In this document: positions 4,390 to 35,790 of the stretch, piece by piece
Layout of the letters: each line of letters opens with the position of its first letter
How positions within the stretch are numbered: position 1 is the stretch's first letter
Assembly: GCA_050740755.1 (NCBI GenBank)
Contig: JBOIDT010000002.1
Coordinates: 1 to 56,020 of the forward strand
Length of the DNA: 56,020 nucleotides
Source of the DNA: Gammaproteobacteria bacterium
GTDB taxonomy: Bacteria; Pseudomonadota; Gammaproteobacteria; JACCXJ01
Reading direction: 5' to 3'
Program-made: the position numbers and the translations under genes
Notes under the pieces: model-generated
What the model saw: only the letters and a program-made list of their open reading frames with translations
Databases searched by the model: none
What the model was told of the DNA's origin: nothing

Positions 4390-4860
4390 TCAGGGGCGGG
4401 ACGCGATGGTGTCGGCGGCCGCCTCTGCCTTATCGCCTTCCCAACTTCCTTTACGGACCTCCCAACTGCCGGGACAACCGTAGATGTCCTGCCAGCTCCC
4501 CGTCCCCGCCCGGTTCCCCAACGTGCCCTCGAAGGTGGCGGCGTCATAGCCCTCGTAGGTGAACGCCCCGGTCATGCGGCCGCGGGCGTCGATGTTCCCT
4601 TCCAGCACGTAGCCGTAGCCCGAGTCGTCTTGCAGCTCGCCGGTGATGGTCGAGCCCTTGATCGTGAGCCGGCCCGTACCGGTCCCGTAGCCGCAGTCCT
4701 CTGCGGCGCCCGGATGAGACGCGGCGGTCTTGCCGACGACGTCCCACACGCCATCGAAGCGTGTCAGGGCGGGATCGGCCGGGGTCGCGTTGATCTCGCT
4801 ACAGCCGTTGAGAGCGCTCGCAACGAGCGGCAGGACACACCACATCATCTTTGTTTTCAT
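4390..4860 (-). CDS. Hypothetical lipoprotein
   Basis: MKTKMMWCVLPLVASALNGC is a signal peptide with a lipobox. 156 aa, Gly/Thr-rich, no family recognised. Confidence 0.55.
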   Translation of the reverse strand: MKTKMMWCVLPLVASALNGCSEINATPADPALTRFDGVWDVVGKTAASHPGAAEDCGYGTGTGRLTIKGSTITGELQDDSGYGYVLEGNIDARGRMTGAFTYEGYDAATFEGTLGNRAGTGSWQDIYGCPGSWEVRKGSWEGDKAEAAADTIASRP

Positions 4861-5111
4861 CGACGCTCCACCCACCAAGAGACCGTTGACCCGGTGATAT
4901 CTCCGGCCCGTGATATCTCCGGTATGCGCGGCGCTTCCCCGCCCCGTGCCCGCGAATCTACACCACGACGAACGCGAATTCCAGGACCAGGGATCCAGGA
5001 CTATGGGGCAGGACGGTCCCGATGGAGCGATTGCCTGGCAGGGGGCGAGCGGGCACAATGGCTCGCGGGGCTCTCGCGAACGATAGCCCGAGCACGAGCG
5101 GAGGAGTAGCC

Positions 5112-5567
5112 ATGTCCAACATGACCGAGCAGCATTCGGGCTCGCTGTCCGAATCGACGCGTTCCCCTCAGGCACGCATCGCACGAGTGGTGAGCGAGGC
5201 GAGCGGCCGGATCGGCGAGGTCGTGGGTGAGGCCGCGAGCGACATCGCGGTGGCGGTGCGGGACGAGGTCGGGCGGCTCGCCGCCCTGTTCAGGCCGGAG
5301 CTCCTCACGGTCGGCAAGGGCCTCGCGGCGCTCTGCGTCGCGGCGCTCGGAGGCCTCCTGGCGTTGGTGTTTGCGAACGTCGCGCTCCTCAATCTGCTCA
5401 CCGAGATGTTGCCGCTGCCATGGGCGGCGCTGGTGTTGGCCGGGATGTGGGCCGCCGTCGCTCTGGTGTGCCTCCGCTTTGCCCGGACCCAGCTGCAGCG
5501 GCTGATGGATCACAAGGGCGATCTCAAGAGGACGCCCGGCGATGCCCGCCCTCCGCCCGCAGGCTAG
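5112..5567 (+). CDS. Phage holin family (Holin-X / superfamily III-like) membrane protein
   Basis: GGAGGA sits before the ATG at 5112. An amphipathic N-region is followed by two TM helices (GLAALCVAALGGLLALVFANVALL, LPWAALVLAGMWAAVALVCL) and then a basic tail. Confidence 0.5.
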   Translation: MSNMTEQHSGSLSESTRSPQARIARVVSEASGRIGEVVGEAASDIAVAVRDEVGRLAALFRPELLTVGKGLAALCVAALGGLLALVFANVALLNLLTEMLPLPWAALVLAGMWAAVALVCLRFARTQLQRLMDHKGDLKRTPGDARPPPAG

Positions 5568-5595
5568 CCGGCGGCGGGCCCTGGCTCCCGCCCCG

Positions 5596-7191
5596 TCACG
5601 CGCGCTTGAAGGCCACGGCCTCGAACTGTTTGGACTCTTCGAACTCTCTGGACAGGGCCATGGGGATCTTGTAAATGTCGAAATGCCCGGAGGCATCGTA
5701 GCTCTCGTACATCTCCTGAAACTCGTGCATCCATAGCCCGAAGAAGAAGGCCAGGTCCACGTGCCTCGGGCGATGGACAAGGGTCCAGCGCACCAGTGAC
5801 CAGAAATTTCGCCGGCCTTTGCCCCTGATCCCGATGTGGTAGACCATGCGGACCACGATCCCGAAGTAACGCCGGAGCAAGGGGAGGGTCCAGCCGCCGA
5901 CGTTCTCGTGCGACGCGATCGGGCTTTGCCGGTAATCCAGGAGCATCGTCTTGGCGCGCTCGCGGACATATTCGGGGGCGTATATCGATCGCAGGACCTT
6001 CTTGTAGCCCGCCGAGAGTACCCCGGCGTCCATCTTGGGCACGATGTTGGTCTGGCTCTCGTGGAAGTCGAATTCGTAGACCAAGCGGCCCTCGCGCTTC
6101 ATGCGCTCGTAGAGCTCGGTTCCCGGGGGGGCCTTGAGCACGCTGACGCCAGCGATGACGATCCCGCTGTCCTGGATGAATTCGATCTGGCGGTCGAAGA
6201 TCGTCGGGGTGTCGGTGTCGAATCCGACGATGAAGCCGGCCGTGACCAGGAAGCCGGCCTGGTGCAGCGCACGTACGTTGTCGAGCATGTTGCGGCGCGT
6301 GTTCTGGCTCTTCTTGCAGGCCAGGAGGCCGACCTCGTCCGGGGTCTCGATGCCGACGAAGATGTGTCTGAAACCCGCTTGGCGCATGAGGTCCATGAGC
6401 TCGGTGTCGTCGGCCAGGTTGATCGTCACCTGGGTCGCGAAGCCGACGGCGGGGCGCTTCCGGCGGCGCCACTCGATGAGCGCGGGGAGCAGATCGGACT
6501 TGAGCAGTTTCTTGTTGCCGATGAGATTATCGTCCGCGAACACCACCAGATCGAAGCGGTCGAGGTCCCCCAGGGCCTCGATCTCGGCGATCATCTGCGC
6601 GGCGGTCTTGGTCCGCGGGCGGCGGCCGAAGAGGGCGGTGACATCGCAGAAATCGCACATATACGGGCAGCCGCGGGAATACTGGACGATGGCGAAACCG
6701 TAGCGGTCGAGATCGCAGAGCTCCCAGAGCGGGACCGGCGTTTGGTGTACGTCGGCCAGCTCCGATGAGCGGTAGATGGGCTTGAGACAACCTGCTTCGA
6801 GGTCCGCGACGAAGGGCGGGAGGGTCACCTCGGCCTCATTCAAGACGAAGTGATCGACTCCTGGGAAGTTCTGGTGCTCGTGGGTGAAGAGCGGTCCGCC
6901 GGCCACTACCTTGACGCCGGCCCGGCGGCAGCGCGCGATGATCTCGCGGGCCGAGCCGGCCTGGACGTTCATGGCCCCGATGAAGGCACAATCGGCCCAC
7001 GCCAGATCGTCCTCGGTGAGCGGGTCGAGGTTGAGGTCGACGAGCCGCTTGCGCCACTCCGGCGGCAACATCGCGGCCACTGTCAGCAGCCCGACGGGCG
7101 GGTAGTTCGCCTGTTTGCCGGCCATCTTCAGGAGCTGGCTCATGGACCAGAACGCGAACGGCATCTTGGGGTAGAGGAAGAGGATGTTCAT
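5596..7191 (-). CDS. B12-binding-domain radical SAM protein with DUF4070-like C-terminus
   Basis: MNILFLYPKMP...PPVGLLTVAAML resembles a cobalamin-binding domain. YSRGCPYMCDFCDV is CxxxCxxC. The C-terminal region is conserved-looking. Confidence 0.85.
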   Translation of the reverse strand: MNILFLYPKMPFAFWSMSQLLKMAGKQANYPPVGLLTVAAMLPPEWRKRLVDLNLDPLTEDDLAWADCAFIGAMNVQAGSAREIIARCRRAGVKVVAGGPLFTHEHQNFPGVDHFVLNEAEVTLPPFVADLEAGCLKPIYRSSELADVHQTPVPLWELCDLDRYGFAIVQYSRGCPYMCDFCDVTALFGRRPRTKTAAQMIAEIEALGDLDRFDLVVFADDNLIGNKKLLKSDLLPALIEWRRRKRPAVGFATQVTINLADDTELMDLMRQAGFRHIFVGIETPDEVGLLACKKSQNTRRNMLDNVRALHQAGFLVTAGFIVGFDTDTPTIFDRQIEFIQDSGIVIAGVSVLKAPPGTELYERMKREGRLVYEFDFHESQTNIVPKMDAGVLSAGYKKVLRSIYAPEYVRERAKTMLLDYRQSPIASHENVGGWTLPLLRRYFGIVVRMVYHIGIRGKGRRNFWSLVRWTLVHRPRHVDLAFFFGLWMHEFQEMYESYDASGHFDIYKIPMALSREFEESKQFEAVAFKRA

Positions 7192-7517
7192 GCGGGCCTC
7201 CGCGCGGGGAGATCGGGTTGCCTTGTTATGCCACCCGTCACGCATGCCCGCGGTCCGCCGTGGCCCGCGGCCTGAATTAAGGTGAATGGCGCGAGGGCTA
7301 GGGTATCCCGATCCGAGCGCTTGTCAAATCGCGCGCTCGGCATATCTATAACTCTGGAGGCTCGGGCACGCGCGTCCGTTGCCCGCCCGGGTCCGGCGAC
7401 GGGCGAATCCAGCAGCGAGAACCCGCCTCAATAAGCGCAGCTAATATGATGAGCCATGGGTTCTTACTTCTGGCACGTTATGGTAGGCTCGGCGGATTGG
7501 GGAGGGGAGTGCGAACG

Positions 7518-9769: not shown

Positions 9770-9970
9770 CCCCCACCCCCACCCGCCCCCGCTCCGCAGG
9801 TCCGCAGGAGAGGGAGCCCGGAGACTCCCTCCCCTGTCCACGCTTTTTGTGGACGGGGGAGGGTGGGGTGGGGGCCAGGCGCGACGTTCGCTGACCAAGC
9901 CCGTTCCCCGCCGCAGCGCCTTCTCCCCCACCCTACCCCTTGTCCCCCAGCGCGGGGAAGGGTCAGGGGG
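9770..9970. repeat. GC-rich nested inverted repeats with G-tract/C-tract (G-quadruplex-type) motifs
   Basis: 9770-9792 (CCCCCACCCCCACCCGCCCCCG) is the near reverse complement of 9854-9876 (CGGGGGAGGGTGGGGTGGGGG). Inner hairpins are GAGGGAG/CTCCCTC and GTCCAC-GCTTTTT-GTGGAC. A second C-tract/G-tract pair lies at 9936-9970. Confidence 0.6.
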
Positions 9971-10179
9971 GTAACGCCACCGTCACAGATTGTCCTATAC
10001 TCACGCCCGCCAGCGGGCGTGCAGTTCCGGGGCACAAGAACCATATCGCGCGTGCCGTCCATCGTTCCCCGACATCATCCCCCGATCTCATTCAGGGGCT
10101 TGCGTCCCGGGTCGTCCTCGGGGCGAAGGGCGGATCGGTACATCACCCGCGATCCAGACCGATCGTTGGAGGGCTTTGC

Positions 10180-11592
10180 ATGACACCGAAAGAAGTGATG
10201 GACCTTATCAAAGGCAAGAACATCGAGATCGTGGACCTCAAGTTCCAGGACTTTCCGGGGACCTGGCAGCACTTCTCGATCCCGATCAGCGAGGTGACAC
10301 CCGACATCTTCGACGAGGGGCTGGGCTTCGACGGCTCCAGCATCCGCGGCTGGCAGGCCATTCACGCGAGCGACATGATGGTCGTGCCCGACCCGGTGAC
10401 CGCCATCGTCGACCCCTTCACGGAACGGCCTACCCTCTCCATGATCTGCAACATCGTGGACCCGGTGACCCGCGAGCGCTATTCACGCGATCCGCGCTAC
10501 GTCGCCGACAAGGCGGAAAGCTATCTCAAGAGCACCGGCATCGGCGACATCGCCTACTTCGGACCGGAGGCTGAGTTCTTCATCTTCGATGGCGTGCGCT
10601 TCGATCAGAACGCCCATTGTGGCTTTTACTATGTCGAGTCGGAGGAGGGGATCTGGGAGTCGGGCAGCGACCGGGGCCCCAACCTCGGGCACAAACCCCG
10701 CCACAAGGAGGGCTATTTCCCCGTCGCCCCCGTCGATTCGCAGCAGGACATCCGCACCGAGATGATCCTCGAGATGGAGAAGGCCGGCATCCATGTGGAG
10801 AAGCACCACCACGAGGTGGCGACGGCCGGGCAGGCGGAGATCGATCTCCGCTACGACTCCCTCACCCGCATGGCCGACAAGATGATGCTCTACAAGTACA
10901 TCACCAAGAACGTGGCGCTGCGCTACGGCAAGACCGTGACCTTCATGCCCAAGCCCATTTTTGGCGACAACGGCTCGGGGATGCACACCCACCAGAGCAT
11001 CTGGAAGGACGGGCAGCCGCTCTTCGCCGGCAACAAGTACGCCGGGATCAGCGATCTGTGCCTGCATTACATCGGCGGGATCCTGAAGCATGCGCCGGCC
11101 CTGTGCGCGTTCGTGGCCCCCACCACCAACTCCTACAAGCGCCTGGTGCCGGGATTCGAGGCGCCCGTCAACCTGGCCTATTCCTCGCGCAATCGATCGG
11201 CGGGGGTCCGCATACCGCTCTATTCGCCGAGCCCCAAGGCCAAGCGCATCGAGGTGCGGTTCCCCGATCCGTCCTGCAACCCCTATCTCGCCTTCGCGGC
11301 GATGTTGCTGGCGGGGATCGACGGCATCGAAAACAAGATCGACCCGGGCGAGCCGCTCGACAAGAACCTCTACGACCTGCCCCCCGAGGAGCTCGCGAAG
11401 GTCCCGAGCTGTCCAGCCTCACTGGAGGCCTCGCTCGGCGCCCTGGAGCGCGACCATGAGTTTTTGACCAAGGGCAATGTGTTCACGCAGGACGTCATCG
11501 ACACCTGGCTCGACTACAAGCGCACCAAGGAGTGCGATCCCGTGCGCCTGCGTCCCCACCCCCACGAGTTCGCCCTCTACTACGATTGCTAA
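10180..11592 (+). CDS. glnA: Glutamine synthetase type I
   Basis: [35 protein letters not shown]..., 470 aa of full-length GlnA-like sequence. GGAGGG precedes the ATG at 10180. Confidence 0.95.
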
Positions 11593-11702
11593 CTGCGGGC
11601 GATTGCTAACTGCGGGCGATTGCTAACTGCGGGCGATTGCTAACTGCGGGCGATTGCTAACGGCAGGCGATTGCTGACGGCGGGCCACTGCTAGCCGCGG
11701 GT
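11584..11702. repeat. 17-bp tandem repeat (GATTGCTAACTGCGGGC), about 7 copies with the last 2-3 degenerate, starting in the last three codons of glnA
   Basis: Read directly: four exact units at 11584-11651, then GATTGCTAACGGCAGGC, GATTGCTGACGGCGGGC and CACTGCTAGCCGCGGGT. Confidence 0.9.
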
Positions 11703-12249: not shown

Positions 12250-12405
12250 GCGCCCGGGGCCGCCCCGCTTGCACGTGTTCCTCACGCACCACACGGTGGA
12301 CTTCAGGTAGCGAGCGACACGAAACGGTCCTGCGCTCGTAGAGGATCCCGGCACCGACTCCGCGCGCCGTGAGCCGCTCGCGCGCTGGCGAGGCCGCCGT
12401 CGCTA

Positions 12406-12435
12406 TTGACAAGCGCGCGTGACGTCGGAGATAGT
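12406..12435 (+). promoter_or_regulatory. Putative sigma70 promoter of the btuB leader
   Basis: TTGACA (12406-12411), an 18-nt spacer, then GATAGT (12430-12435). The same arrangement is conserved in the duplicated leader at 16120-16149. Confidence 0.4.
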
Positions 12436-12650
12436 GTGCCGGCTTCAGGTGTCCCGGAGGACCTTCGTCCGATGGGATGAAACGGGAAGCCGGTGCGCTC
12501 CGGGAATCGATCCGCGAGCAATGCTGGCGCTGCCCCCGCAACGGTAAGCAAGCAAAGGAGCGGCACTACGCCACTGTGCTACGGCATGGGAAGGCGCCGC
12601 CCCAGGGTCCCACCCGCTTGCGAGCCCGGAGACCGGCCTGAAGGGATTGC
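12425..12650 (+). promoter_or_regulatory. Cobalamin (B12) riboswitch, copy 1
   Basis: Conserved core elements GGGAAGCCGGTGCG, GCTGCCCCCGCAACGGTAAG, GCCACTG, GGGAAGGCG and the B12 box GAGCCCGGAGACCGGCC. Located upstream of a TonB-dependent receptor. Confidence 0.85.
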
Positions 12651-12773
12651 AATGGCATTGCGGAGGGTGATGCCGGGGCGCCCGGGCCATCGTTTCCACC
12701 TCCCGCTTTGCCCCCTTCCTCTGCGTGCCTTGCCCGAGCTTGCTGCGCGGGTGTGCGCGCGGAGGAGAAAATC

Positions 12774-14765
12774 ATGCGATTGCGCCGATTGCCGGCCGTC
12801 CTGCTGCCCCTGGGTCCCCTGTCTTATTGCCCCCTATCTTGTACCCCCGTCTTCGCCGCCGAAGAGCCGGTCGAGCTGGATCCGATCATCGTCACCGCCA
12901 CCCGGCTCGAGACGCCTCTCGATCAGATCCCCGCTTCGGTGTCCGTGGTGGAAGGCGAGGACATCGAACGCGAGCAGGTCGCGGATACGCTCGAGGTCCT
13001 GCGCGACATCCCGGGATTCACCATCGTGCAGAGCGGGAGCCGCGGCGGCGCGACCTCGCTCTTCGTCCGAGGCGGCGAGTCGGACTACAATCAAGTCTTG
13101 ATCGACGGCGTCAAGGTGAACCAGGCGGGAGGCTTTTTCGATTTCTCGGACCTCACGACCGACGGGGTCGAGCGCATCGAGATCGTGCGCGGGCCGCAGA
13201 GCGCGCTCTACGGCTCGGACGCGATCACCTCGGTGGTGCAGCTCTTCACCCGCCGCGGCGACGGGCCACTAGCCGCTCGCTTCGGCTTCGCCGGCGGCGA
13301 GTTCGAGACCTTCGAGGAGCATGGCGGGATCTCGGGTGGCACCGAGCGCTACGGCTACGCTGTCGATGTCGGACGCATCGACACCGACGGGATCCTCGAC
13401 TTCAACAATCGCTATGGGAACACGACCGTCGCCTCGCGTTTCGATTGGAGCCCGATCGAGACGCTCGACCTCACGACCACGGTGCGCTACAACGACTCGC
13501 GCTTCGAGACACCGAGCGAAATCGCGGGAGATCGGTTCCCGCCGCTCGATCCGAACCAGTTCACGGAGCGGGACAGGCTGATCGTCGGGCCGCGCGCGGT
13601 TTGGAACCCCGTTCCCTGGTGGCGCCACTCTCTCCAGCTCGGGTTCTACCACGAGGATTTTACTTTCGACGATCCCTTGGATACACGCGTCGATATCGGA
13701 TCCTCCCAAAGCGACACGACCCAGGAGCGCCTGTCGGCCGATTACAATTCGACTTTTTTCCTGCCGTCCTTCGCCGGCATCGCGCCGACCGTGACGCTCG
13801 GGGGCTATGGAGAGGCGGAGTCCTTCGAACAGGACTCGCTGTTCCTGTTTCCGGGTTTTAGATTGTCGGACCGCGCCGACGAGACTCGGAATGCGGGGGC
13901 CTTTTATTCGCAGATGATCCTCGACTGGCAAGAGCGGGTGACGCTGATCGCCGGCTTCCGGCTCGATGAAAGCTCGACCTACGGCACCGAGGTGAACCCG
14001 CGAGTCGGGCTCTCCTATCGCCTCCCGGGGACCGAGACCAAGCTCCGCGCGAGCTACGGGACCGGAATCAAGAACCCGACCTTCTTCGAGAACTTCGGCA
14101 GGACGCAGTTCGGGAGGGGTGACGAAGACCTCGATCCCGAGCGCTCGGAGAGCTGGGAGGTCGGCGTCGACCAGCCGCTGCCCTTAAGCGATTATCCGGT
14201 CGAGGTGTCCGCGACGTACTTCTCCTCGGATTTCGACGACCTGATCAGCTTCATCCCGCAGAGTGATCCTAACGATATCGCCTTGTTCAACATCCAGGAG
14301 GCACAGAGCCGCGGCGTCGAGGTCGGTTTGCGGATCGTGACCCCGATCGGCATCGGCCTCCGCGGCAGCTATACCTATCTCGACACCGAAGTGGTCGACT
14401 CCGGCCCATCGGGGGGCACGCTGTTCGTCGAGGGCGAGCCGCTCCTGCGCCGCCCCGAGCATTCCGGCGCCTTCACCCTCGACTATTCCGCCGACCGCTG
14501 GACGGCCAGCTTCAACCTGAGCATCAAGGGAAGCTCGATCGACCGCGATTTCAACGCCGACCCGGGCGGCGCCCGTGTCGGCCTCGACGGATACACGAAG
14601 GCCGACGTCGCCCTCGCTTATCGCCTGATCGAGAACCAGTTCGGCATGGAGTCCTTCTCGATCACCGCCAAGGGTCAGAATATATTTGACGAGGACTACG
14701 AGGAGGCGTTCGGCTTCTCGACCGCGGGGGCGAGCTTCCTGATCGGCTTCCGCGCCGAGATGTGA
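12774..14765 (+). CDS. btuB: TonB-dependent vitamin B12/corrinoid outer-membrane receptor
   Basis: GGAGGA precedes the ATG at 12774. Signal peptide, TonB box DPIIVTATR, plug and barrel motifs, C-terminal ...FLIGFRAEM. Sits under a cobalamin riboswitch. Confidence 0.9.
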   Translation: MRLRRLPAVLLPLGPLSYCPLSCTPVFAAEEPVELDPIIVTATRLETPLDQIPASVSVVEGEDIEREQVADTLEVLRDIPGFTIVQSGSRGGATSLFVRGGESDYNQVLIDGVKVNQAGGFFDFSDLTTDGVERIEIVRGPQSALYGSDAITSVVQLFTRRGDGPLAARFGFAGGEFETFEEHGGISGGTERYGYAVDVGRIDTDGILDFNNRYGNTTVASRFDWSPIETLDLTTTVRYNDSRFETPSEIAGDRFPPLDPNQFTERDRLIVGPRAVWNPVPWWRHSLQLGFYHEDFTFDDPLDTRVDIGSSQSDTTQERLSADYNSTFFLPSFAGIAPTVTLGGYGEAESFEQDSLFLFPGFRLSDRADETRNAGAFYSQMILDWQERVTLIAGFRLDESSTYGTEVNPRVGLSYRLPGTETKLRASYGTGIKNPTFFENFGRTQFGRGDEDLDPERSESWEVGVDQPLPLSDYPVEVSATYFSSDFDDLISFIPQSDPNDIALFNIQEAQSRGVEVGLRIVTPIGIGLRGSYTYLDTEVVDSGPSGGTLFVEGEPLLRRPEHSGAFTLDYSADRWTASFNLSIKGSSIDRDFNADPGGARVGLDGYTKADVALAYRLIENQFGMESFSITAKGQNIFDEDYEEAFGFSTAGASFLIGFRAEM

Positions 14766-14861
14766 GAACAGCTACGACAACATCAGCTTGTTCGTGACCC
14801 TAGAGGACCGACCGGATAGACTGTGACCCCAAGTGATACCCACCGCAAGAGGAAGAAACCC

Positions 14862-15446
14862 ATGATCGACAAGACCATCCGCCACACCGCTCTTATCGCC
14901 ATAGCCCTGGCCCTCTGCATGGCCGCCACCCGCAGCGAACACTTCGCAGGCGAATGGCACCTCCCCGATGCCTCCGCCGCGGTGTTCTTCCTCGCCGGGG
15001 TGTATCTGCGCCCGATGTGGATGCTGCCGGCCCTCTTGGTCGAGGCGGCGCTCATCGACTACCTCGCCATCGCCTTCGGCGGTGTGTCGAGCTTCTGCAT
15101 GAGCCCCGCTTACGGATTTCTCCTACCCGCTTACGGGGCGCTGTGGCTCGCCGGCCGCTGGTACGCGGTTCGCCATCGTTTTGCTTTCTCGACCTTGCTG
15201 CCCCTGGCCGCGAGCGTCGTCATCGGCGGCGTGGTGAGCGAGTTGTTTTCCAGCGGCGGCTTCTATTTCTTCTCCGGGCGTTTCGAGCCGAATCTCGCGG
15301 AATTCGGCACGCGGATCGTGAGATACTTCCCATCCTCCCTGGCCACGCTCGCGTTCTACGTCGCCGTCGCGGCGATCGTGCATGCCGCGCTCGGCGCCGT
15401 GCGCCTGTCGGGGGCGCGTGAAAGACGGGCGCTGGGCGGGAACTGA
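14862..15446 (+). CDS. Polytopic membrane protein, candidate BtuM-like (solitary ECF S-component-like) cobalamin transporter
   Basis: About 194 aa with about 6 hydrophobic helices. Lies between btuB and cobO in the riboswitch operon. Has a Cys near residue 79 (SSFCMSPAY). The family assignment is inferred from context and my recollection of BtuM, not from a search. Confidence 0.5.
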   Translation: MIDKTIRHTALIAIALALCMAATRSEHFAGEWHLPDASAAVFFLAGVYLRPMWMLPALLVEAALIDYLAIAFGGVSSFCMSPAYGFLLPAYGALWLAGRWYAVRHRFAFSTLLPLAASVVIGGVVSELFSSGGFYFFSGRFEPNLAEFGTRIVRYFPSSLATLAFYVAVAAIVHAALGAVRLSGARERRALGGN

Positions 15447-15451
15447 GAATC

Positions 15452-16069
15452 GTGGATCCCCCCATGGATCCCCTCGCCCGGGAAGAACGTCACCGGCTGC
15501 GCATGCAGCGCAAAAAGGCGGTCATCGACGCCGCCATCGCCCGCGCCTCCGCGGACAAGGGATTGCTCCTGGTCCTGACCGGCAACGGCAAGGGCAAGTC
15601 CAGCTCGGCCTTCGGCATGGTAGCGCGCGCCCTGGGGCACGGCATGAGAGTCGGGGTCGTCCAGTTCATCAAGGGGCGCATTCCGACCGGGGAGGCGGCG
15701 TTCCTCCGCCGCGTTCCCGATCTCGGGTACCACGTCATGGGTGAGGGCTATACCTGGGAGACCCAGGACCGCGGGCGCGATGGGGAGGCCGCTCGGGCGG
15801 CATGGCAGGTGTCGCGCCGGATGTTGCAGGACCCGGATCTCCATCTCGTGGTACTTGATGAGTTGACCCTGGTGCTGAAATATGGATATTTAAGCACGGA
15901 AGAGGTGCTGCATGATCTCGAGCTGCGCCCGCCGATGCAGCATGTCGTCGTCACCGGCCGCGGCGCCCCGGCCGGGTTGATCGAGGCCGCCGATACCGTG
16001 ACCGAGATGCGGGCGGTCAAGCACGCCTTCGAGGCCGGCGTCCGGGCCCAGAAGGGCATAGAGCTCTGA
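15452..16069 (+). CDS. cobO: Cob(I)yrinic acid a,c-diamide / cob(I)alamin adenosyltransferase
   Basis: LLLVLTGNGKGKSSSAFGM P-loop, VVQFIKG, LVVLDELT, VVTGR. CobO/BtuR family. The start is GTG 15452 or ATG 15464. Confidence 0.9.
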   Translation: MDPPMDPLAREERHRLRMQRKKAVIDAAIARASADKGLLLVLTGNGKGKSSSAFGMVARALGHGMRVGVVQFIKGRIPTGEAAFLRRVPDLGYHVMGEGYTWETQDRGRDGEAARAAWQVSRRMLQDPDLHLVVLDELTLVLKYGYLSTEEVLHDLELRPPMQHVVVTGRGAPAGLIEAADTVTEMRAVKHAFEAGVRAQKGIEL

Positions 16070-16118
16070 CCGCCCAAGGCGTTCGAGGTATGGGCACCCC
16101 GGCGGGGCCGTCATCGCT
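15986..16118. repeat. Direct repeat copy 1: 3' end of cobO plus downstream hairpin, repeated at 20130-20268
   Basis: By-eye alignment shows GCCGATACCGTGACCGAGATGC.GGC.GTCAAGCACGCCTTC.AGGC.GGC.TCCGGGCCCAGAA.GGCATAGA..T.CTGACCGCCCAAGGCGT...GGGCACCCC...CATCGCTA shared by both copies. Confidence 0.8.
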
Positions 16119-16119
16119 A

Positions 16120-16149
16120 TTGACAGGCGTGCGTTACGTCGGAGATAGT
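16120..16149 (+). promoter_or_regulatory. Putative sigma70 promoter, duplicate of the btuB leader promoter
   Basis: TTGACA (16120-16125), an 18-nt spacer, then GATAGT (16144-16149). Confidence 0.4.
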
Positions 16150-16372
16150 GTGCCGGCTTCAGGTGTCCCGGAGGACCTTCGTCCGATGGGATGAAACGGG
16201 AAGTCGGTGCGCTCCGGGGATCGATCCGCGAGCAATGCCGGCGCTGCCCCCGCAACGGTAAGCAAGCAAAGGAGCGGCACTACGCCACTGTGCTACGGCA
16301 TGGGAAGGCGCCGCCCCAGGGTACACACCCGCTTGCGAGCCCGGAGACCGGCCTGAAGGGTGTTGCAATGGC
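16140..16372 (+). promoter_or_regulatory. Cobalamin (B12) riboswitch, copy 2
   Basis: Nearly identical to copy 1, with about a dozen differences over about 290 nt by eye. All core elements and the B12 box GAGCCCGGAGACCGGCC (about 16337-16353) are retained. Confidence 0.85.
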
Positions 16373-16615
16373 ATTGCGGAGGGTGATGCCGGGGCGCCCA
16401 GGCCGTTATCTCTTTCCCGCCCCGCCGCCATTTCTCCGCGGGCCTTGCTCTGTGTACCGTTGTTGCGCGGGTGTGCGCGGCGGAAAAAACCTATGGTATT
16501 GCGCCGACTATCGGAGTCTCGAGGAGACCCACGATTCGAGCCACCGAGATCTACCGGGCCGAGTGACGCTGACCGCGGAGGAAATGGCGGGGCCGGAGGA
16601 CATGCGTGGAAGCTC

Positions 16616-18058
16616 TTGAGGCCGCTAGGCAGGGCTCTCACCGTGATTGCAATCATCGAGCTTAGCGCCGGCGGCGGCCCGGCGGTCGCCGACGACCGGG
16701 GGGAGATCAAGGCGTTGCACGAGACGGTGAGGCAGTTGCAACGCCAGATCGATGAACTTCGAGAAAGGCTACCCACGCCGAGCGAACGGGAGGAAAGGTT
16801 CCGGGACGAGGTGAGGACGCTCCGGGAGGAGCTGAGCGAGCTTCGCTCGCGGGCGATGCCGGTGGAACCCGTCCAAGAGATAAAACGAATCACCGAATGG
16901 GTCTGCGAGCACGGGCACACGTTCTCCGCCGCGCCGGAAGGTGGGCGCTGCCCATTCGATCAGACTCCAGTCGTCGCCCGTCTCGAGTATCGAAAGGTGA
17001 AGCTCGACCGCCGCGAGACGGTCTCGGAGAAAATCGAAGCCCGGCTCGCCAAAGAGGCGCGCCGCGGCGTCGCGCTCGGCCTCTCCGCCACGGGCATCGT
17101 GCAGCAGACCGCCGGCGCAGGGCCTGACCGACTCCGGGGCGTCGGCTCCGCGGACGTCATTTTGCTCGCGCGTCCCGCCCTGGAGACCACCTTCTTCGTG
17201 GATCTCGAGGCCATCGGGGGTGACGGACCCGATCCCTTGCTGGGCTCGGCCTCGGGTCTCAACGCCGACGCGGGATCTCTCCAGGATTCGGATCTGGCCG
17301 ACCGGGTGACCCTGCGCGAAGCCTGGCTGGCGGCGACGTTCTTCGGAGGTCACCTGAGCGCCGTCGGTGGAAAGCTCGACCTCACGAACTACTTCGACCG
17401 TAACGCCGCCGCCAACGACGAGACCCGCCAGTTCATTTCGGGCATGTTCGTCAACAACCCGCTCCTCGGCCAACCTGTCCAGGGCGTGGGCCACCAGGCG
17501 AACGCCCCTGGGCTCCATTTCGCCTGGGATACGTTTCGCGAGCTCAAGTTCGGGATCGGAGCGCAGGCGCCCGAGGACTCGGGCGACGCGCTCGGCCGGA
17601 CCCCGTTTCTGATCGGCGAGATCGACTACTCGACCTCGATGCTCGGGGGGCCCGGCAACTACCGGCTGTGGGGCCGGCGCAACGGCGGAGACGATCGTTC
17701 CGGCGCAATCGGTGCCAACTTCGACCAGTCGGTGGGCGCCCGGGCTCGTGGTTTCGGTCGATACGGCTTCCAATTCGGCGGCCGGGAACGAGATCGGCAC
17801 GCGTGGAGCCTGGGGCTCGGGCTGCAAGCTCTGCCGACCCTCCGTCCCCGGGACGAGACCGGCCTCGCCTACGGCTGGCTACGCGCGGCGAATGGCCGAG
17901 TCGAGGATCTCGCGGAGATCTACCACCGTTTCTACTTGACCGACCACCTCTCTCTGAGCCTGCTCGCGCAGTACGTCTTTCACCTCGCGGGCGACGAGGA
18001 GATAGAGCCGCTGGAGGGCGTATTCCTCGGCGGTTTTCGCACCCAGGTGAATTTCTGA
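16616..18058 (+). CDS. Outer-membrane porin, OprB (carbohydrate-selective porin)-like beta-barrel with an N-terminal coiled coil
   Basis: A TTG start at 16616 gives the signal peptide MRPLGRALTVIAIIELSAGGGPAVA/DD. A heptad-like segment (LHETVRQLQRQIDELRERL...LREELSELR) follows. GKLDLTNYFDRNAAANDETRQFISGMFVNNP is OprB-like. The C-terminal RTQVNF is a barrel signature. An alternative ATG at 16493 is homologous to the btuB start, but its codon usage up to 16615 looks non-coding. Confidence 0.65.
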   Translation: MRPLGRALTVIAIIELSAGGGPAVADDRGEIKALHETVRQLQRQIDELRERLPTPSEREERFRDEVRTLREELSELRSRAMPVEPVQEIKRITEWVCEHGHTFSAAPEGGRCPFDQTPVVARLEYRKVKLDRRETVSEKIEARLAKEARRGVALGLSATGIVQQTAGAGPDRLRGVGSADVILLARPALETTFFVDLEAIGGDGPDPLLGSASGLNADAGSLQDSDLADRVTLREAWLAATFFGGHLSAVGGKLDLTNYFDRNAAANDETRQFISGMFVNNPLLGQPVQGVGHQANAPGLHFAWDTFRELKFGIGAQAPEDSGDALGRTPFLIGEIDYSTSMLGGPGNYRLWGRRNGGDDRSGAIGANFDQSVGARARGFGRYGFQFGGRERDRHAWSLGLGLQALPTLRPRDETGLAYGWLRAANGRVEDLAEIYHRFYLTDHLSLSLLAQYVFHLAGDEEIEPLEGVFLGGFRTQVNF

Positions 18059-18080
18059 CACCAAGAAAAGGAGAAATGAA

Positions 18081-19289
18081 ATGAAGACAGATGCAAGATC
18101 GATGGCGCGGCGGATCGCCGTCGCGCTCGCGACGTGCGGGACCTTGATGATGGCTACGTTGCCTAGCCAGGCAGCGGGCGTGGACGCACAAACGACGCTC
18201 TTCGTCACCAACCGGGACTCGAGCGACGTCACGATGATAGACACGAGAAGCGACCGGATCGTGGGCCGGATCGCGCTCGGCGAGCTGGTCAATCCCCACA
18301 TGGCGATGGTCACTCCCGACGGCAAGCGCCTCCTGGTCGCGGGGACGAGGCGGAACCAGGCCTTGATCGTCGACCTTGCGGCCTTGGAGGTCGCGAAGCG
18401 GATCCCGATCGGCATTGATCCCGAACACTTCGACATTTCGGACGATGGCAGGCTTGCGCTCATGGGAAATCTCGAAGAGGGCACGGTGTCGGTCCTGGAC
18501 CTGGTCGCAGGGATCGAGATCAAGCGCATGGGCGACTTCTCGGAGCCCCACGGCTTCGCCTTCCTGCCCGGCGGGAAGAAGGCCTACGTATCGAGCTTCG
18601 GCGCTCACGAGGTCGCCGCCGTCGCCACCGCCGCCGTGGAGACGATCGCGATCGCGCGAAGATTCGCGGTCGGATCGAGTCACCTTCTTGCCGGCGCTAA
18701 CCCGGATCGCTACTTGACCGAGATCAAGGGGATCGCCAACCCGACCCCGACCCTCGACGGGCGATTCGTGTACGCCGCCGACGGCGACTCCGGAGAAATA
18801 GCGGTGATCGACACCGCGACCGACCAGGTCGTGAAGACGATTCGGGTCGGCGAGGAGCCCTGGCGGGCCTACCCCTCTCCCGATGGCGCGAAGATGCTCG
18901 TGCCCAACAACGGCGACGAGACGATTTCGGTGATCGACGTCGCGAAGCAAACCGTGATCGCCACACTGCGCGGAGGGCCCGGCATGACCGGTATCAACTT
19001 CGACCTCAAGGGCCGCAAGGCCTACGCCTTCAGCTCGGGCGAATACGGGACGGTCCTCATCTACGATCTCGCGGACCTGCGGGAAGCCAGTCAGAGACGC
19101 CTCGGCCCGAACTTTAGCCTGGAGACCGCGACGACGACCCCCGACGGTCGAAAGATCTATCTCGCGTCTTCCACCGACAACTCGGTCTACGTGATCCACA
19201 CCGCGACCGATGAGATCACGAGGATCCCGAACGTCGGTGCGTCGCCCTGGGCGACGACTATGCTCGGGACTTACCAGTACTGTCACTGA
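18081..19289 (+). CDS. Secreted YVTN-family beta-propeller repeat protein
   Basis: AAGGAG RBS. Signal peptide ...ATLPSQA/AG. Repeated approximately 40-aa units (LFVTNRDSSDVTMIDTRSDRIV, YAADGDSGEIAVIDTATDQVVKTI, LVPNNGDETISVIDVAKQTVIATL, YLASSTDNSVYVIHTATDEI). Confidence 0.75.
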   Translation: MKTDARSMARRIAVALATCGTLMMATLPSQAAGVDAQTTLFVTNRDSSDVTMIDTRSDRIVGRIALGELVNPHMAMVTPDGKRLLVAGTRRNQALIVDLAALEVAKRIPIGIDPEHFDISDDGRLALMGNLEEGTVSVLDLVAGIEIKRMGDFSEPHGFAFLPGGKKAYVSSFGAHEVAAVATAAVETIAIARRFAVGSSHLLAGANPDRYLTEIKGIANPTPTLDGRFVYAADGDSGEIAVIDTATDQVVKTIRVGEEPWRAYPSPDGAKMLVPNNGDETISVIDVAKQTVIATLRGGPGMTGINFDLKGRKAYAFSSGEYGTVLIYDLADLREASQRRLGPNFSLETATTTPDGRKIYLASSTDNSVYVIHTATDEITRIPNVGASPWATTMLGTYQYCH

Positions 19290-19307
19290 GCCGGCCCGCG
19301 GACGCCA

Positions 19308-20102
19308 ATGCAGTTCCGCCTCTTCTGCGTCATCGCGCTGGCTCTCGTGATCGGTCCTGCCGGTGGACGCGCGGCCGACTCCGGCGGTGAGGATGCCCGG
19401 GCGGCTCGATTGCGGGAGATCGTAGAAGAGCACTTCCTGGGGCAGTGTTGCACCGCCTGCGGCACGAAGTGCTCGGTCGAGGAGATCCTTGCGTCTCTCG
19501 ATCCCGCGAGCCAGATGGTGATTGGTCCCGCGCCCGATCTCGACTTCATCCGGGGCCTTTCGCCCGACGTCCCGCCTCCGGAGGTGCAGGTCGATTCGGG
19601 CGGCGGGGTGTCGATCCGGCTCGCTTCCTTCGGCAGGCGGACCGGCCGCCAGTTTCTGGCGGCGACCGGATCGCTCGACCCTTCTCGGCTCTCATCGATG
19701 AGGCTCGACCTCCGCGGGAACGGCGGCGGTTGCCTCGAAAGCGCGCTCGAGATCGCCGGGGCCTTCGCCCCTCGCGGAGCGCTCCTCCTCGATATCGCGG
19801 GCCGCTCGGGCGTGCGCATTTTCCAAAGCCGCGGCCCGCGGCGCTTCGCCGGCCTGCCGGTCCAAGTGCTGGTCGACGAGAGAACCGCGAGCAGCGCCGA
19901 AGTTCTCGCATGGCTACTCCGCCGCTACGCGGGTGCCCGGATCCTCGGGCGGCGCACCGCCGGCAAGGGCACGGTCCAGGAGGTCTACCGGGTCGATCCT
20001 CGCGCCCGCCTGGTCCTGACGACCGGCGTCTACCGTCTGCCGGACGGGACCCCGCTCGGGGGCACGGGCATCGAGCCCGATTCTGAGGAGCGAAACGAAT
20101 GA
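19308..20102 (+). CDS. Secreted S41-family (C-terminal processing peptidase-like) serine peptidase domain protein lacking a PDZ domain
   Basis: Signal peptide MQFRLFCVIALALVIGPAGGRA. LDLRGNGGG, VLVDERTASSAEVLA (Ser nucleophile context) and RRTAGKGTVQE (Lys). Cys-rich GQCCTACGTKCS near the N-terminus. Confidence 0.65.
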   Translation: MQFRLFCVIALALVIGPAGGRAADSGGEDARAARLREIVEEHFLGQCCTACGTKCSVEEILASLDPASQMVIGPAPDLDFIRGLSPDVPPPEVQVDSGGGVSIRLASFGRRTGRQFLAATGSLDPSRLSSMRLDLRGNGGGCLESALEIAGAFAPRGALLLDIAGRSGVRIFQSRGPRRFAGLPVQVLVDERTASSAEVLAWLLRRYAGARILGRRTAGKGTVQEVYRVDPRARLVLTTGVYRLPDGTPLGGTGIEPDSEERNE

Positions 20103-20129
20103 GTCCCGCGAAGCTCCAGGCCTACGCTG

Positions 20130-20268
20130 GCTGCCGATACCGTGACCGAGATGCAGGCCGTCAAGCACGCCTTCAAGGCGGGCATCCGGGCCCAGAAAGG
20201 CATAGAATTCTGACCGCCCAAGGCGTCCGCGTAGTCCGCGTAGGGGCACCCCTCGTGGGTGCCCCCAT
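20130..20268. repeat. Direct repeat copy 2 of the cobO 3' end plus hairpin
   Basis: Aligns with 15986-16118, roughly 85-90 percent identical by eye. Contains a 9-bp tandem TCCGCGTAG x2 and a perfect hairpin GGGGCACCC-CTCGT-GGGTGCCCC (20243-20265). Confidence 0.8.
20131..20213 (+). pseudogene. cobO 3'-terminal fragment (last ~27 codons and stop)
   Basis: Encodes ...ADTVTEMQAVKHAFKAGIRAQKGIEF*, versus the intact cobO ending ...ADTVTEMRAVKHAFEAGVRAQKGIEL*. Confidence 0.8.
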
Positions 20269-20318
20269 CGCTAGAAGCGCATAGCGCTGAACGCCCAAGG
20301 CCTTCGACGGAGGTCGCC

Positions 20319-20867
20319 ATGAATGAAACGCAAACGCCCCGCCGCGAGATCGTCGACAACCCGGACGGGACGGTGACCGAATACACCGATTTCGAGCCCG
20401 CGGAGCCACAGATGCAAAGGCTCGCCGATCTCCTGTTCAAGGAGCACTGGGGCGAGATCACCGTGGGGCCGTGCATTCAGGGCGCGGTTTTCGAGATCCG
20501 GTTCAAGGATCCGCCCAAGGTCTCGCTCTTCGATGGCTATCTGACCGTGGACCTCGGTCACTGGCACTTCCACCTCTGCATCGGGACGCACAAAGGCACG
20601 CCCTCGCCGGAACTGGCGGCGAAGCGCCGCGTGGCGCGCGCCGCGTTCTTCGAGACGCGCGGTGGAAAATGCGGCGGGGGCCGGAGCTGGGGCCTGCGCC
20701 TCTGGAACGGCTTCGGCGAGCAGATGACCACCGTGTTCCTCCCGAGCCCGTTCTTGTCGGAGGACCTCAAGGTGCTGAAAGAGCCGCGCTGGGAGCGGCT
20801 GCGCCTCTGGTACGCGCTGCGCGAGACGTTTCTGGGCGAGCCGATGCCGGAGGACTTGAACGGCTGA
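20319..20867 (+). CDS. Conserved hypothetical protein (GHWHFHLCIG motif)
   Basis: GGAGG precedes the ATG at 20319. 182 aa with good coding composition and no family recognised. It would directly follow cobO if the cassette were removed. Confidence 0.55.
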   Translation: MNETQTPRREIVDNPDGTVTEYTDFEPAEPQMQRLADLLFKEHWGEITVGPCIQGAVFEIRFKDPPKVSLFDGYLTVDLGHWHFHLCIGTHKGTPSPELAAKRRVARAAFFETRGGKCGGGRSWGLRLWNGFGEQMTTVFLPSPFLSEDLKVLKEPRWERLRLWYALRETFLGEPMPEDLNG

Positions 20868-35022: not shown

Positions 35023-35790
35023 CTAATACCAGAACCGAACCCCGGCCACGAAGGCCGGGATGTCGATGTCCTCGCCGCGCCGGCGCGCCAGATCGGCGGT
35101 TCGGCCGACCTTTCGTTCCCACACGAATCCCACGTAGGGTGCGAACTCACGCACGATCTCATAGCGGAGCCGTAACCCCAGCTCGACCTGACTGAGCCCG
35201 GGCCCGATCCCAATCTCCTCGACCTCCTGAACGGCGAAATCGAGCTCCAACGCCGGTTGCAGGATCAAACGCTGGGTGATGAGGATCGGGTATTCGACCT
35301 CGAGCCGCGCCGATACGTCGCCATCCTCGCTGATGAAGGCATCGGCGTCCACCTCGTAGAGATAGGGCGCGAGCCCGTGGGCGGCAAACACCGCAAAGCC
35401 GCGCGACGGCTCGGGTTCCAGGTCATAGCGCACGCCCACGGCCAGCTCCCAGAAGGCCGTGACCAGGCGGCTGTAGCGGAGCTGCAACTCCGCGGTTTCC
35501 ACGGGACCGTCGAGGAGATGATCCCCTTGTGTCTTGAACCACAAGCGGTCGTAGTCCCCGCCGATCCAGCCTCGCACATCCCAGCTATACGTTTCCGAAT
35601 CCTCGTCCGTGACGCGGAGCTCCGATTGTTCGGCCTGGAGGTAGGCCAGGACCCGATCGGCGTGCGGCGTCGCGGACGGTTCGGCTGCCAGGAGGTTCGT
35701 TACCTTGATCCATAGCAGTGCCGTGCAGATCGTCTGCATGGCCGCATTTCTCGCCCGCATTGGCGTGCGTTCCCGAACGGGTACGCTCAT
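35023..35790 (-). CDS. copB: Copper resistance protein B (outer-membrane CopB/PcoB)
   Basis: WDVRGWIGGDYDRLWFKTQGD..., C-terminal AGVRFWY. ATGA overlap with the copA stop. Confidence 0.85.
   Translation of the reverse strand: MSVPVRERTPMRARNAAMQTICTALLWIKVTNLLAAEPSATPHADRVLAYLQAEQSELRVTDEDSETYSWDVRGWIGGDYDRLWFKTQGDHLLDGPVETAELQLRYSRLVTAFWELAVGVRYDLEPEPSRGFAVFAAHGLAPYLYEVDADAFISEDGDVSARLEVEYPILITQRLILQPALELDFAVQEVEEIGIGPGLSQVELGLRLRYEIVREFAPYVGFVWERKVGRTADLARRRGEDIDIPAFVAGVRFWY

Follow-up and report, generated by a model that had tools for sequence, protein, structure and literature searches.

The window, a 56,020-nucleotide (nt) stretch of gammaproteobacterial DNA, contains two cobalamin riboswitches of the Rfam family RF00174. 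Riboswitch 2 is followed by three genes in the same direction, which encode an OprB-family porin, a β-propeller and an S41 serine peptidase. The gaps between them are 22 nt (porin–propeller) and 18 nt (propeller–peptidase), and all three proteins start with hydrophobic signal-like segments, judged by eye from the sequence. We refer to riboswitch 2 with this trio as unit 2 and to the paralogous genes led by riboswitch 1 as unit 1 (Table 1). Here we describe the trio, its relatives at other loci and the solute that such a module may carry.

Table 1 Features of unit 2 and unit 1 in the window
Feature	Position	Strand	Basis
Promoter-like site of unit 2	16120–16149	+	TTGACA, 18-nt spacer, GATAGT; 10 of 12 matches
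Cobalamin riboswitch aptamer, copy 2	16144–16370	+	RF00174, 109.5 bits (gathering score 31.5), E = 1.4e-26, full model 1–189
Expression platform of copy 2	16371–16495	+	Anti-Shine-Dalgarno UUUCUCCGCG (16431–16440) pairs with CGCGGCGGAA (16477–16486), covering the Shine-Dalgarno sequence just 5' of ATG 16493
OprB-family porin	16493–18058	+	OprB PF04966, 41.4 bits (cut-off 22.9), C-terminal part only
Exported eight-bladed haem-d1/YVTN-type propeller, 402 residues	18081–19289	+	Pfam Cytochrom_D1 (PF02239), 62 bits (cut-off 25.5); YNCE
PDZ-less S41 serine peptidase with signal peptide and Cys-rich N-terminal segment	19308–20102	+	Peptidase_S41, 104.6 bits, residues 103–259
Relic of cobO 3' end, 101 nt	20129–20229	+	90% identical to 15985–16085; just 3' of the peptidase gene; rearrangement boundary of the module
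Unit 1 as a whole, paralogous to unit 2	12406–16069	+	Promoter-like site, riboswitch, TonB-dependent receptor, BtuM homologue, CobO
Riboswitch 1	12430–12655	+	RF00174, 105.1 bits
TonB-dependent receptor (BtuB-type)	12775–14765	+	Pfam Plug and barrel domains
BtuM-type membrane protein	14862–15446	+	PDB 8c7p/8ovv (199 residues, deposited as "Cobalamin ABC transporter"), E = 1.9e-46; no Pfam or NCBIfam match
CobO	15452–16069	+	Pfam

The riboswitch leader and the three proteins

The promoter-like site of unit 2 is identical to the site at 12406–12435 before riboswitch 1, and its TTGACA element is conserved across the leaders of relatives. In an alignment fold of seven gammaproteobacterial expression platforms, of both receptor type and porin type, a consensus helix forms in all seven between UUCCUCCGCG and CGCGGAGGAA, the latter being the Shine-Dalgarno sequence. 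The helix shows little covariation, the seven leader sequences being close. The fold of the whole leader is uninformative (z = −1.86), and no terminator-like site is found on the plus strand of the unit 2 leader. The anti-Shine-Dalgarno helix is common to the porin leader and the leader of the paralogous TonB-dependent receptor, which we count in favour of an off-switch. We infer that the leader is a translational off-switch of the type known for btuB leaders. In the porin leader, the Shine-Dalgarno sequence (within 16477–16495) reads GGCGG, which breaks one pair of the helix, and all six related leaders have GGAGG. The substitution would weaken both ribosome binding and anti-Shine-Dalgarno pairing.

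The longest open reading frame of the porin starts at 16445. Relatives start at a codon homologous to the ATG at 16493, and an alternative TTG at 16613 lies directly 5' of the signal-like segment. By its domain content, the protein belongs to the OprB family; its homologues score 32–81 bits on the OprB model, with coverage up to profile positions 54–372. The AlphaFold2 model (predicted local distance difference test score, pLDDT, 79) has long N-terminal helices, a hairpin with a Cys/His knuckle and 16 barrel strands, and its closest match in the PDB is P. putida OprB (4gey, E = 2.2e-16). The porin contains WVCEHGHTFSAAPEGGRCPFD, with Cys138, His140, His142 and Cys153 (numbered from ATG 16493). 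The two Cys of the knuckle are kept in at least 90% of 43 porins, and the anammox knuckle reads C-x2-G-H...C-x2-C. The acidic loop DLTNYFD-x-N-x2-ANDET is invariant or nearly so. An assignment of the knuckle to the Pfam HMBD domain was rejected, as six porins give no HMBD match even at E up to 5; the hhalign comparison of the knuckle with one HMBD sequence (93.7% probability) is kept as a resemblance only. In a sister group of the porin (proteins P0205–P0239), N-terminal CarboxypepD_reg-like domains are fused to the OprB barrel; the same domain type occurs in the cupredoxin-like partner of Brocadiales described below.

The AlphaFold2 model of the propeller (pLDDT 89.5, predicted template modelling score 0.86) has eight four-stranded blades, and the strand pattern has the C-terminal strand joining three N-terminal strands to close the ring. 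The best whole-fold PDB matches in Foldseek are NirN with dihydro-haem d1, NirF and the d1 domain of NirS (6rtd, 6tv2 and 1nir), with template modelling (TM) scores of 0.71–0.78. In a profile alignment, His73 of the propeller lies two positions from the His of NirN and one from the His of NirF, which we take to be the proximal haem-d1 ligands. Residues invariant in 64 members are His73, Glu115-His116, Trp261-Arg262, Tyr264, Asn277, Met302, Thr349 and Pro389-Trp390, and Glu348 is kept in 63 of 64 (Gln in locus L051). In addition, every sequence ends in Tyr-Cys-His (Y400-C401-H402). One subgroup has Leu at position 157 in place of His, and His176 is variable. Most of the invariant residues sit where the innermost strand starts in one blade after another, around the opening of the central channel, and the propeller is likely the ligand-binding part of the module. 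No conserved Cys (lipobox) is present in the signal region of 28 propeller homologues. Therefore, the propeller is probably periplasmic. A lactonase-type N2O reductase (L-NosZ, NF052460) was considered and rejected, the match reaching 80.5 bits against a cut-off of 700 over residues 39–187 only. Pfam finds no fused cupredoxin domain in the 402 residues.

The peptidase belongs to the S41 family at the domain level without being a canonical Ctp/Prc protein: it scores 99 bits on TIGR00225 (cut-off 218.6) and falls below the cut-offs of all named Ctp/Prc models, and no PDZ domain is matched in Pfam at E up to 0.01. The motifs DLRxNxGG, TAS[SC]AE and GKGT[IV]Q are kept in 34 partner peptidases; TAS[SC]AE and GKGT[IV]Q, which we take to hold the catalytic Ser/Lys dyad, supply Ser195, Lys220 and Gln224 in the window. 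Therefore, the peptidase is probably active. Its Cys-rich segment, CCTACGTKC, begins at residue 47 and is conserved only as C-x3-4-C, in proteobacterial versions.

A first-pass annotation of the window, made from its letters, had described the locus as a second cobalamin riboswitch followed by three closely spaced, co-directional genes for an OprB-like barrel with a coiled coil and a Cys/His segment, a signal-peptide β-propeller and a PDZ-less S41 peptidase with a Cys-rich N-terminus. The Rfam and Pfam searches and the sequence itself confirm this description.

Recurrence of the module and its partners

The propeller has more than 1500 homologues, and full-length relatives in other phyla are 50–57% identical. 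A scan of one genome per species gave 65 loci, all in metagenome-assembled genomes, and contig look-ups added Methylomirabilis; all relatives of the module are metagenome-derived. The 65 loci belong to Gamma-, Delta- and Alphaproteobacteria, Brocadiales including Scalindua, Manganitrophaceae and other Nitrospirota, Nitrospinota, a spirochaete and an elusimicrobium. The non-redundant set comprises 71 loci in at least eight phyla, including anammox bacteria, Nitrospira, Nitrospina, NC10 and several Proteobacteria. A profile scan of the full library is dominated by giant multi-repeat YVTN proteins; within the top 150, only about a dozen full-length 50% clusters seem to be orthologues.

Riboswitches in these loci were located with an nhmmer profile built from nine Rfam-confirmed seeds. 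Genes were labelled by phmmer against proteins of known Pfam content, on open reading frames called for this analysis. For the 58 of the 71 loci with at least 2.5 kb of upstream sequence, on which the riboswitch counts are based, a same-strand cobalamin riboswitch lies upstream of the propeller in 53 and within 3.5 kb of it in 47. Two or more riboswitches are present in 20 of the 58, and 55 have either a riboswitch or cbi/cob genes. All nhmmer matches that were rechecked with Rfam were confirmed (L001, L004, L005, L007, L008 and L064, and 14 of 14 in nine further loci). The porin is directly upstream of the propeller in 45 of the 71 loci, the peptidase is downstream in 35, and both are present in 30. 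By these counts, the propeller is the core of the module, and the porin and the peptidase are frequent accessories. The first reading of the trio as a B12-regulated envelope module is borne out by this recurrence. Two alphaproteobacterial loci (L066 and L072) have no riboswitch, and their neighbours (OmpA, Sel1) give no B12 clue; the open reading frames called there are mostly spurious, the sequence being high in GC. In anammox bacteria, two or three cobalamin riboswitches stand in tandem 5' of the porin (for example, L007 7639–7852 and 8030–8238), which suggests a steeper or two-input response.

The gene order varies with lineage. Anammox bacteria and Gammaproteobacteria have one riboswitch or two before porin–propeller–peptidase, and Nitrospirota have riboswitch–porin–propeller beside cbi genes. 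Nitrospinota have riboswitch–propeller–CbiX–CbiC–CbiD, with riboswitch–propeller–CbiX in eight loci of this phylum. In Methylomirabilis, CbiET–propeller–peptidase–BluB is embedded in a cbi operon. The module is also inside cbi operons in L004 and L012 (CbiX–DUF3209–porin–propeller–peptidase–CbiD), L005, L026 and L064 (S41–CbiX). A Kiloniellaceae genome that uses the aerobic pathway has riboswitch–propeller–peptidase–CobW–CobN (L065). Many of the loci thus have the module within a cbi/cob operon, often with the cobalt chelatase alongside, and cobalt chelatase or chaperone genes adjoin it in both B12 pathways. Every host with a visible gene neighbourhood has B12-synthesis genes, and none looks like a pure scavenger. 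No nir genes were noticed beside the module, the neighbours seen being cbi/cob genes, and no search aimed at nir genes was made.

Transport genes for cobalt and corrinoids occur in the same neighbourhoods. In Scalindua and Brocadia, a riboswitch-led cbiMNQO operon lies beside the trio. Nitrospira and Nitrospina loci (L030 and L059) have riboswitch-led TonB-dependent receptors together with Peripla_BP_2/FecCD/ABC (BtuFCD-like) importers. In L001, a BtuM paralogue lies 3' of the S41 gene in the same unit as the trio.

Three further kinds of partner, each confined to certain lineages and absent from the window, belong to metal-handling families. In Scalindua, Brocadia and Anammoxibacter, an N-terminal NosL domain is fused to the S41 peptidase. 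In Brocadiales, a cupredoxin-like protein of 250–300 residues is encoded between the propeller and the peptidase at nine loci (L013, L016, L017, L020, L023–L025, L032 and L046; for example, L032 4340–5260). Its C-terminal part is CarboxypepD_reg-like, and its only Pfam matches, to cupredoxin and CarboxypepD_reg, are below threshold. The motifs H-N-L-H and G-C-D-x-H-x-E-M are invariant, and H-N-L-H together with C-x2-H-x2-M within the second presumably makes up a type-1 copper ligand pattern. In four Nitrospinota loci and one spirochaete, the porin and a Leu157 variant of the propeller are followed by an HMBD adaptor and a resistance-nodulation-division (RND) pump (L050 8326–14890; L051 2646–9345; L054; L055; L062 2341–8779, minus strand). 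The adaptor matches Pfam HMBD at 8e-14, and the pump matches the CusA/CzcA model at 837 bits, which exceeds the cut-off; its motif in transmembrane helix 4 is presumably of CusA type. A B12 riboswitch heads the operon in the Nitrospinota loci, and none was found in that of the spirochaete (L051). Why B12 should control a heavy-metal efflux pump is not obvious.

Two other proteins were noted at these loci. A small 2Fe-2S thioredoxin-like protein (PF01257, weak match) flanks the module in L004 (11873–12220), L008 (8044–8373) and about 12 other loci, its gene lying just 5' of the riboswitch or just 3' of the peptidase. In L044 (Nitrospirota), a protein of 385 residues (4549–5706) with a lipobox-like ISGC signal and no Pfam match is encoded 3' of a riboswitch-led TonB-dependent receptor and might be a surface partner of that receptor.

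Cobalt supply and competing readings

We propose that the trio is the local form of a widespread B12-repressed envelope module that feeds B12 synthesis, most likely by delivering cobalt, and give this reading a probability of about 0.45. By analogy, the module would work like a riboswitch-controlled micronutrient uptake unit. In the scheme that we infer, which assigns the propeller a periplasmic location and the module a ligand, a direction of transport, a role for the peptidase and a B12-bound off state, scarcity of adenosylcobalamin would cause the riboswitch to leave the Shine-Dalgarno sequence free, and the three proteins would be made. The trimeric OprB-type porin, whose periplasmic coiled coil bears the Cys/His knuckle, would admit a small cationic solute via its acidic constriction loop. 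The periplasmic propeller would capture the solute with His73, His116, Met302, Glu348 and two Trp residues at the channel mouth together with the C-terminal Tyr-Cys-His tail, keep its free concentration low, and hand it to the inner-membrane importer of the host. The S41 peptidase would be an active accessory that matures the system or turns over the loaded propeller. C-terminal tail recognition is a hallmark of the S41 family. Therefore, the peptidase may clip the ligand-holding C-terminal tail of the propeller. More tentatively, the propeller family and the porin may form the first dedicated outer-membrane and periplasmic cobalt route, operating in B12 producers with the His/His/Met site and the C-terminal Cys-His tail; cobalt would then be released by the tail-specific partner peptidase or by redox partners.

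Several observations favour cobalt. The module adjoins chelatase or chaperone genes in both B12 pathways, which favours cobalt over a corrinoid. Its partners (NosL, the cupredoxin-like protein, and the HMBD adaptor with the CusA-type pump) come from metal-handling families, which favours a metal ion. A 16-stranded OprB-type barrel with an acidic loop favours a small cation over a corrinoid. Separate corrinoid routes in the same loci, namely BtuB–BtuM–CobO and the TonB-dependent receptors with BtuFCD-like importers, also favour cobalt. We count the riboswitch-led cbiMNQO operon beside the trio and the B12-synthesis genes of all visible hosts on the same side.

The known cobalt uptake systems (CbiMNQO, NiCoT, CbtAB, CbtJKL and predicted cobalt TonB-dependent receptors) resemble the module in having a B12 riboswitch and a position beside chelatase or CobW–CobN genes, and they and the module occur interchangeably across lineages. 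However, there is no homology: none of the Pfam and NCBIfam matches of the three proteins is to such a family. The known systems work at the inner membrane or depend on TonB, and CbiMNQO is a separate operon in some loci. A cobalt route made up of a porin and a periplasmic propeller has not been described. Clustering with chelatase genes has served before to predict cobalt transporters, and an OprB-family porin has been predicted as a conduit for Fe2+ (PMC545781). According to a 2021 review, no cobalt-specific outer-membrane receptor has been confirmed (PMC7689651).

Other observations weigh against cobalt delivery. The closest folds, those of NirN, NirF and NirS, bind haem d1 or its precursor, which fits a tetrapyrrole ligand, and in the alignment His73 is no more than two positions away from the proximal His of NirN and NirF. 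An organic ligand would match the invariant Trp, Arg, Tyr and Asn residues of the propeller. NosL, cupredoxin, HMBD and the CusA-like motif are typical of Cu(I), not cobalt, and an RND pump exports, which would fit badly with uptake. In the loci examined, no inner-membrane importer is conserved with the module; the importer-like gene that follows S41 in the L001 unit is the BtuM paralogue. As to the role of the peptidase, a PDZ domain that could read the tail is missing, and the peptidase is absent from about half of the loci. In addition, BtuG2, a propeller with related repeats, holds B12 in its central cavity (PMC10404256).

The strongest alternative, which we consider unlikely, is corrinoid capture. 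The central cavity of the propeller would hold a corrinoid such as cobalamin or cobinamide, whose cobalt would have Cys401, His402 or His73 as its axial ligand, and the propeller would hand the corrinoid over to an inner-membrane importer such as BtuM; the porin would be an anchor or partner, and the peptidase would free corrinoids or process the propeller. The eight-bladed fold of the haem-d1 binders, with Cytochrom_D1 above its cut-off and a His close to the NirN/NirF position, is consistent with such a ligand, as are the invariant aromatic and polar residues around the channel and the BtuM paralogue in the L001 unit. For a Cys ligand there is a precedent in BtuM, which holds cobalamin by a Cys. 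On the other hand, a 16-stranded OprB-type barrel is probably too narrow for a 1.3 kDa corrinoid. The metal-handling partners, the adjoining chelatase and chaperone genes, the canonical corrinoid routes in the same loci and the B12-synthesis genes in every host with a visible neighbourhood also speak against it.

Corrinoid capture was the role put forward in the first-pass annotation, by analogy with Bacteroides BtuG. Of its two claims about the propeller, the one that it binds the ligand stands as likely; the ligand itself need not be a corrinoid, given the metal-handling partners and chelatase neighbours. The use of the porin as a corrinoid conduit is doubtful in view of the narrow barrel. 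The analogy holds in part. Both systems are envelope modules under a B12 riboswitch, with propellers of YVTN/YncE-type repeats, and the propeller profile gives weak matches to the BtuG2 structures 8BMX, 8BMY and 3DSM (E about 2e-6, 30 bits, about 125 residues), at a level that unrelated WD40 proteins reach as well. BtuG2, with seven blades and a corrinoid bound in the central cavity, is the precedent for B12 in a propeller (PMC10404256). The present propeller has eight blades, and is probably periplasmic with no conserved lipobox, whereas BtuG is a surface lipoprotein. Its partner is a passive OprB-type porin and not the TonB-dependent transporter BtuB of Bacteroides, and the hosts make B12 and are not auxotrophs. 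BtuG has nothing that corresponds to the invariant His/Met/Cys-His set or to the S41 partner. The present propeller thus falls outside the BtuG family.

The haem-d1 propellers NirF, NirN and NirS resemble the present one in fold, in scoring above the PF02239 cut-off, in being periplasmic, as the present one probably is, and in the His near the proximal-ligand position. Their ligand is a modified tetrapyrrole whose synthesis has its early steps in common with that of B12. However, identity is only 14–20%, the module is under a B12 riboswitch, and the C-terminal Tyr-Cys-His and the other invariants are specific to the present family.

The probability left over by cobalt, corrinoid and copper or redox roles is unassigned. 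A copper or redox role is itself improbable. The propeller would then be a periplasmic protein with a His, His, Met and Cys-His centre, loaded by NosL and supplied with electrons by the cupredoxin, that protects or enables B12 supply; candidate tasks are the removal of N2O or NO, which inactivate cobalamin, the reduction of inert Co(III) complexes and the clearing of copper that competes with cobalt. The NosL fusions, the invariance of all four type-1 ligand positions in the cupredoxin-like partner and the HMBD adaptor with its CusA-like pump point in this direction. So do the partial NosZ match, the largely nitrogen-cycle hosts and the resemblance of the invariant ligand set to a copper site. 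However, the NosZ score falls far short of the cut-off of 700 and a fused cupredoxin domain is lacking, there are eight blades and not seven, and the copper-type partners are lineage-confined and absent from the window. A copper enzyme would give no direct reason for B12 riboswitch control or for a position in cbi operons.

The operons with the pump invite comparison with the copper/silver efflux system CusCFBA, since porin–propeller–HMBD adaptor–CusA-type pump mirrors cusC–cusF–cusB–cusA, with the propeller in place of the metallochaperone CusF. They differ in that the outer-membrane partner is an OprB-type barrel and not a TolC-like factor, and that a B12 riboswitch leads the operon. The trio in the window has no pump, and the pump subgroup has Leu for His157. 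The peptidase can be compared in the same way with Prc/Tsp and CtpA/B, with which it shares an S41 catalytic domain with Ser, Lys and Gln motifs and an envelope location; it differs in having no PDZ domain, in scoring below the named model cut-offs and in being NosL-fused in anammox bacteria.

A local accident, in which a trio unrelated to B12 gained its riboswitch only via recent duplication of the TonB-dependent receptor leader, would fit the 95% identity of the two leaders over the aptamer, the cobO relic and the GGAGG-to-GGCGG change in copy 2, but it is refuted by the comparative data: across at least eight phyla, 53 of 58 loci show the same association with riboswitches and cbi/cob genes, and these riboswitches are not copies of each other. 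The B12 link of the module is, by these comparisons, no such accident.

If cobalt delivery is correct, the route would serve B12 producers that matter to biogeochemistry worldwide (anammox bacteria, Nitrospira, Nitrospina, NC10 and Manganitrophus). The passage of cobalt across the outer membrane and the periplasm is an unanswered question, for which the module is a concrete candidate, and there is a substantial chance that it is the first outer-envelope cobalt route to be described. Its hosts are drivers of the nitrogen cycle and provide microbial communities with B12, in many cases where little cobalt is available. With a corrinoid as the ligand, the module would be a second, independent propeller solution to B12 capture, in producers instead of gut scavengers. 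Either way, metal-handling partners under B12 control are flagged that have no current explanation. Apart from work on Bacteroides BtuG, a full-text literature search found no paper that ties such a propeller, an OprB porin or an S41 peptidase to B12 riboswitches, and it found no publication on the module, in agreement with its first description as undescribed. Source annotations of the family are generic, and a conserved family now called only a "YVTN", "lactonase" or "cytochrome D1 domain" protein gains biological context.

The neighbouring corrinoid unit and rearrangement of the locus

Unit 1 has the gene content of a complete corrinoid salvage unit (BtuB–BtuM–CobO), in which the BtuM-type protein is read as a corrinoid importer by its match to the PDB entries. 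The leaders of the two units are 95% identical over 229 nt (12380–12608 and 16094–16322; the repeat is listed as 12380–12688 and 16094–16404) and still alignable through the Shine-Dalgarno sequence and the first codons. In four close relatives, the receptor-type and porin-type leaders are likewise alignable, with pairwise identities of 72–88%. The locus has been rearranged recently, as a relic of cobO follows the peptidase gene and L009 has S41–CobO–CbiX at this position. The A-X-B-A-Y-B layout of leaders and cobO ends points to recent recombination between B12 units. The close relatives L001, L009 and L011 have the same B12 units in another order.

A protein with a DUF7676 domain and no signal peptide recurs in B12 loci (window 20259–20867, L001 1009–1602 and L030 14107–14676). 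Its gene lies after CobQ in L001 and after a riboswitch-led TonB-dependent receptor in L030, and the product may be a cytoplasmic B12-related protein. The window also encodes a B12-binding radical SAM protein (5596–7245, minus strand) and a three-domain multicopper oxidase (35787–37514, minus strand), so the host both makes use of B12 and deals with copper in the periplasm. In the close relative L001, a group II intron domain (RF02001, 43.4 bits) is matched at 14951–15119, immediately 3' of the B12 genes. In the window, about eight tandem copies of a 17-nt unit (CGATTGCTAACTGCGGG) occupy 11566–11701, directly 3' of the glutamine synthetase gene (9940–11592).

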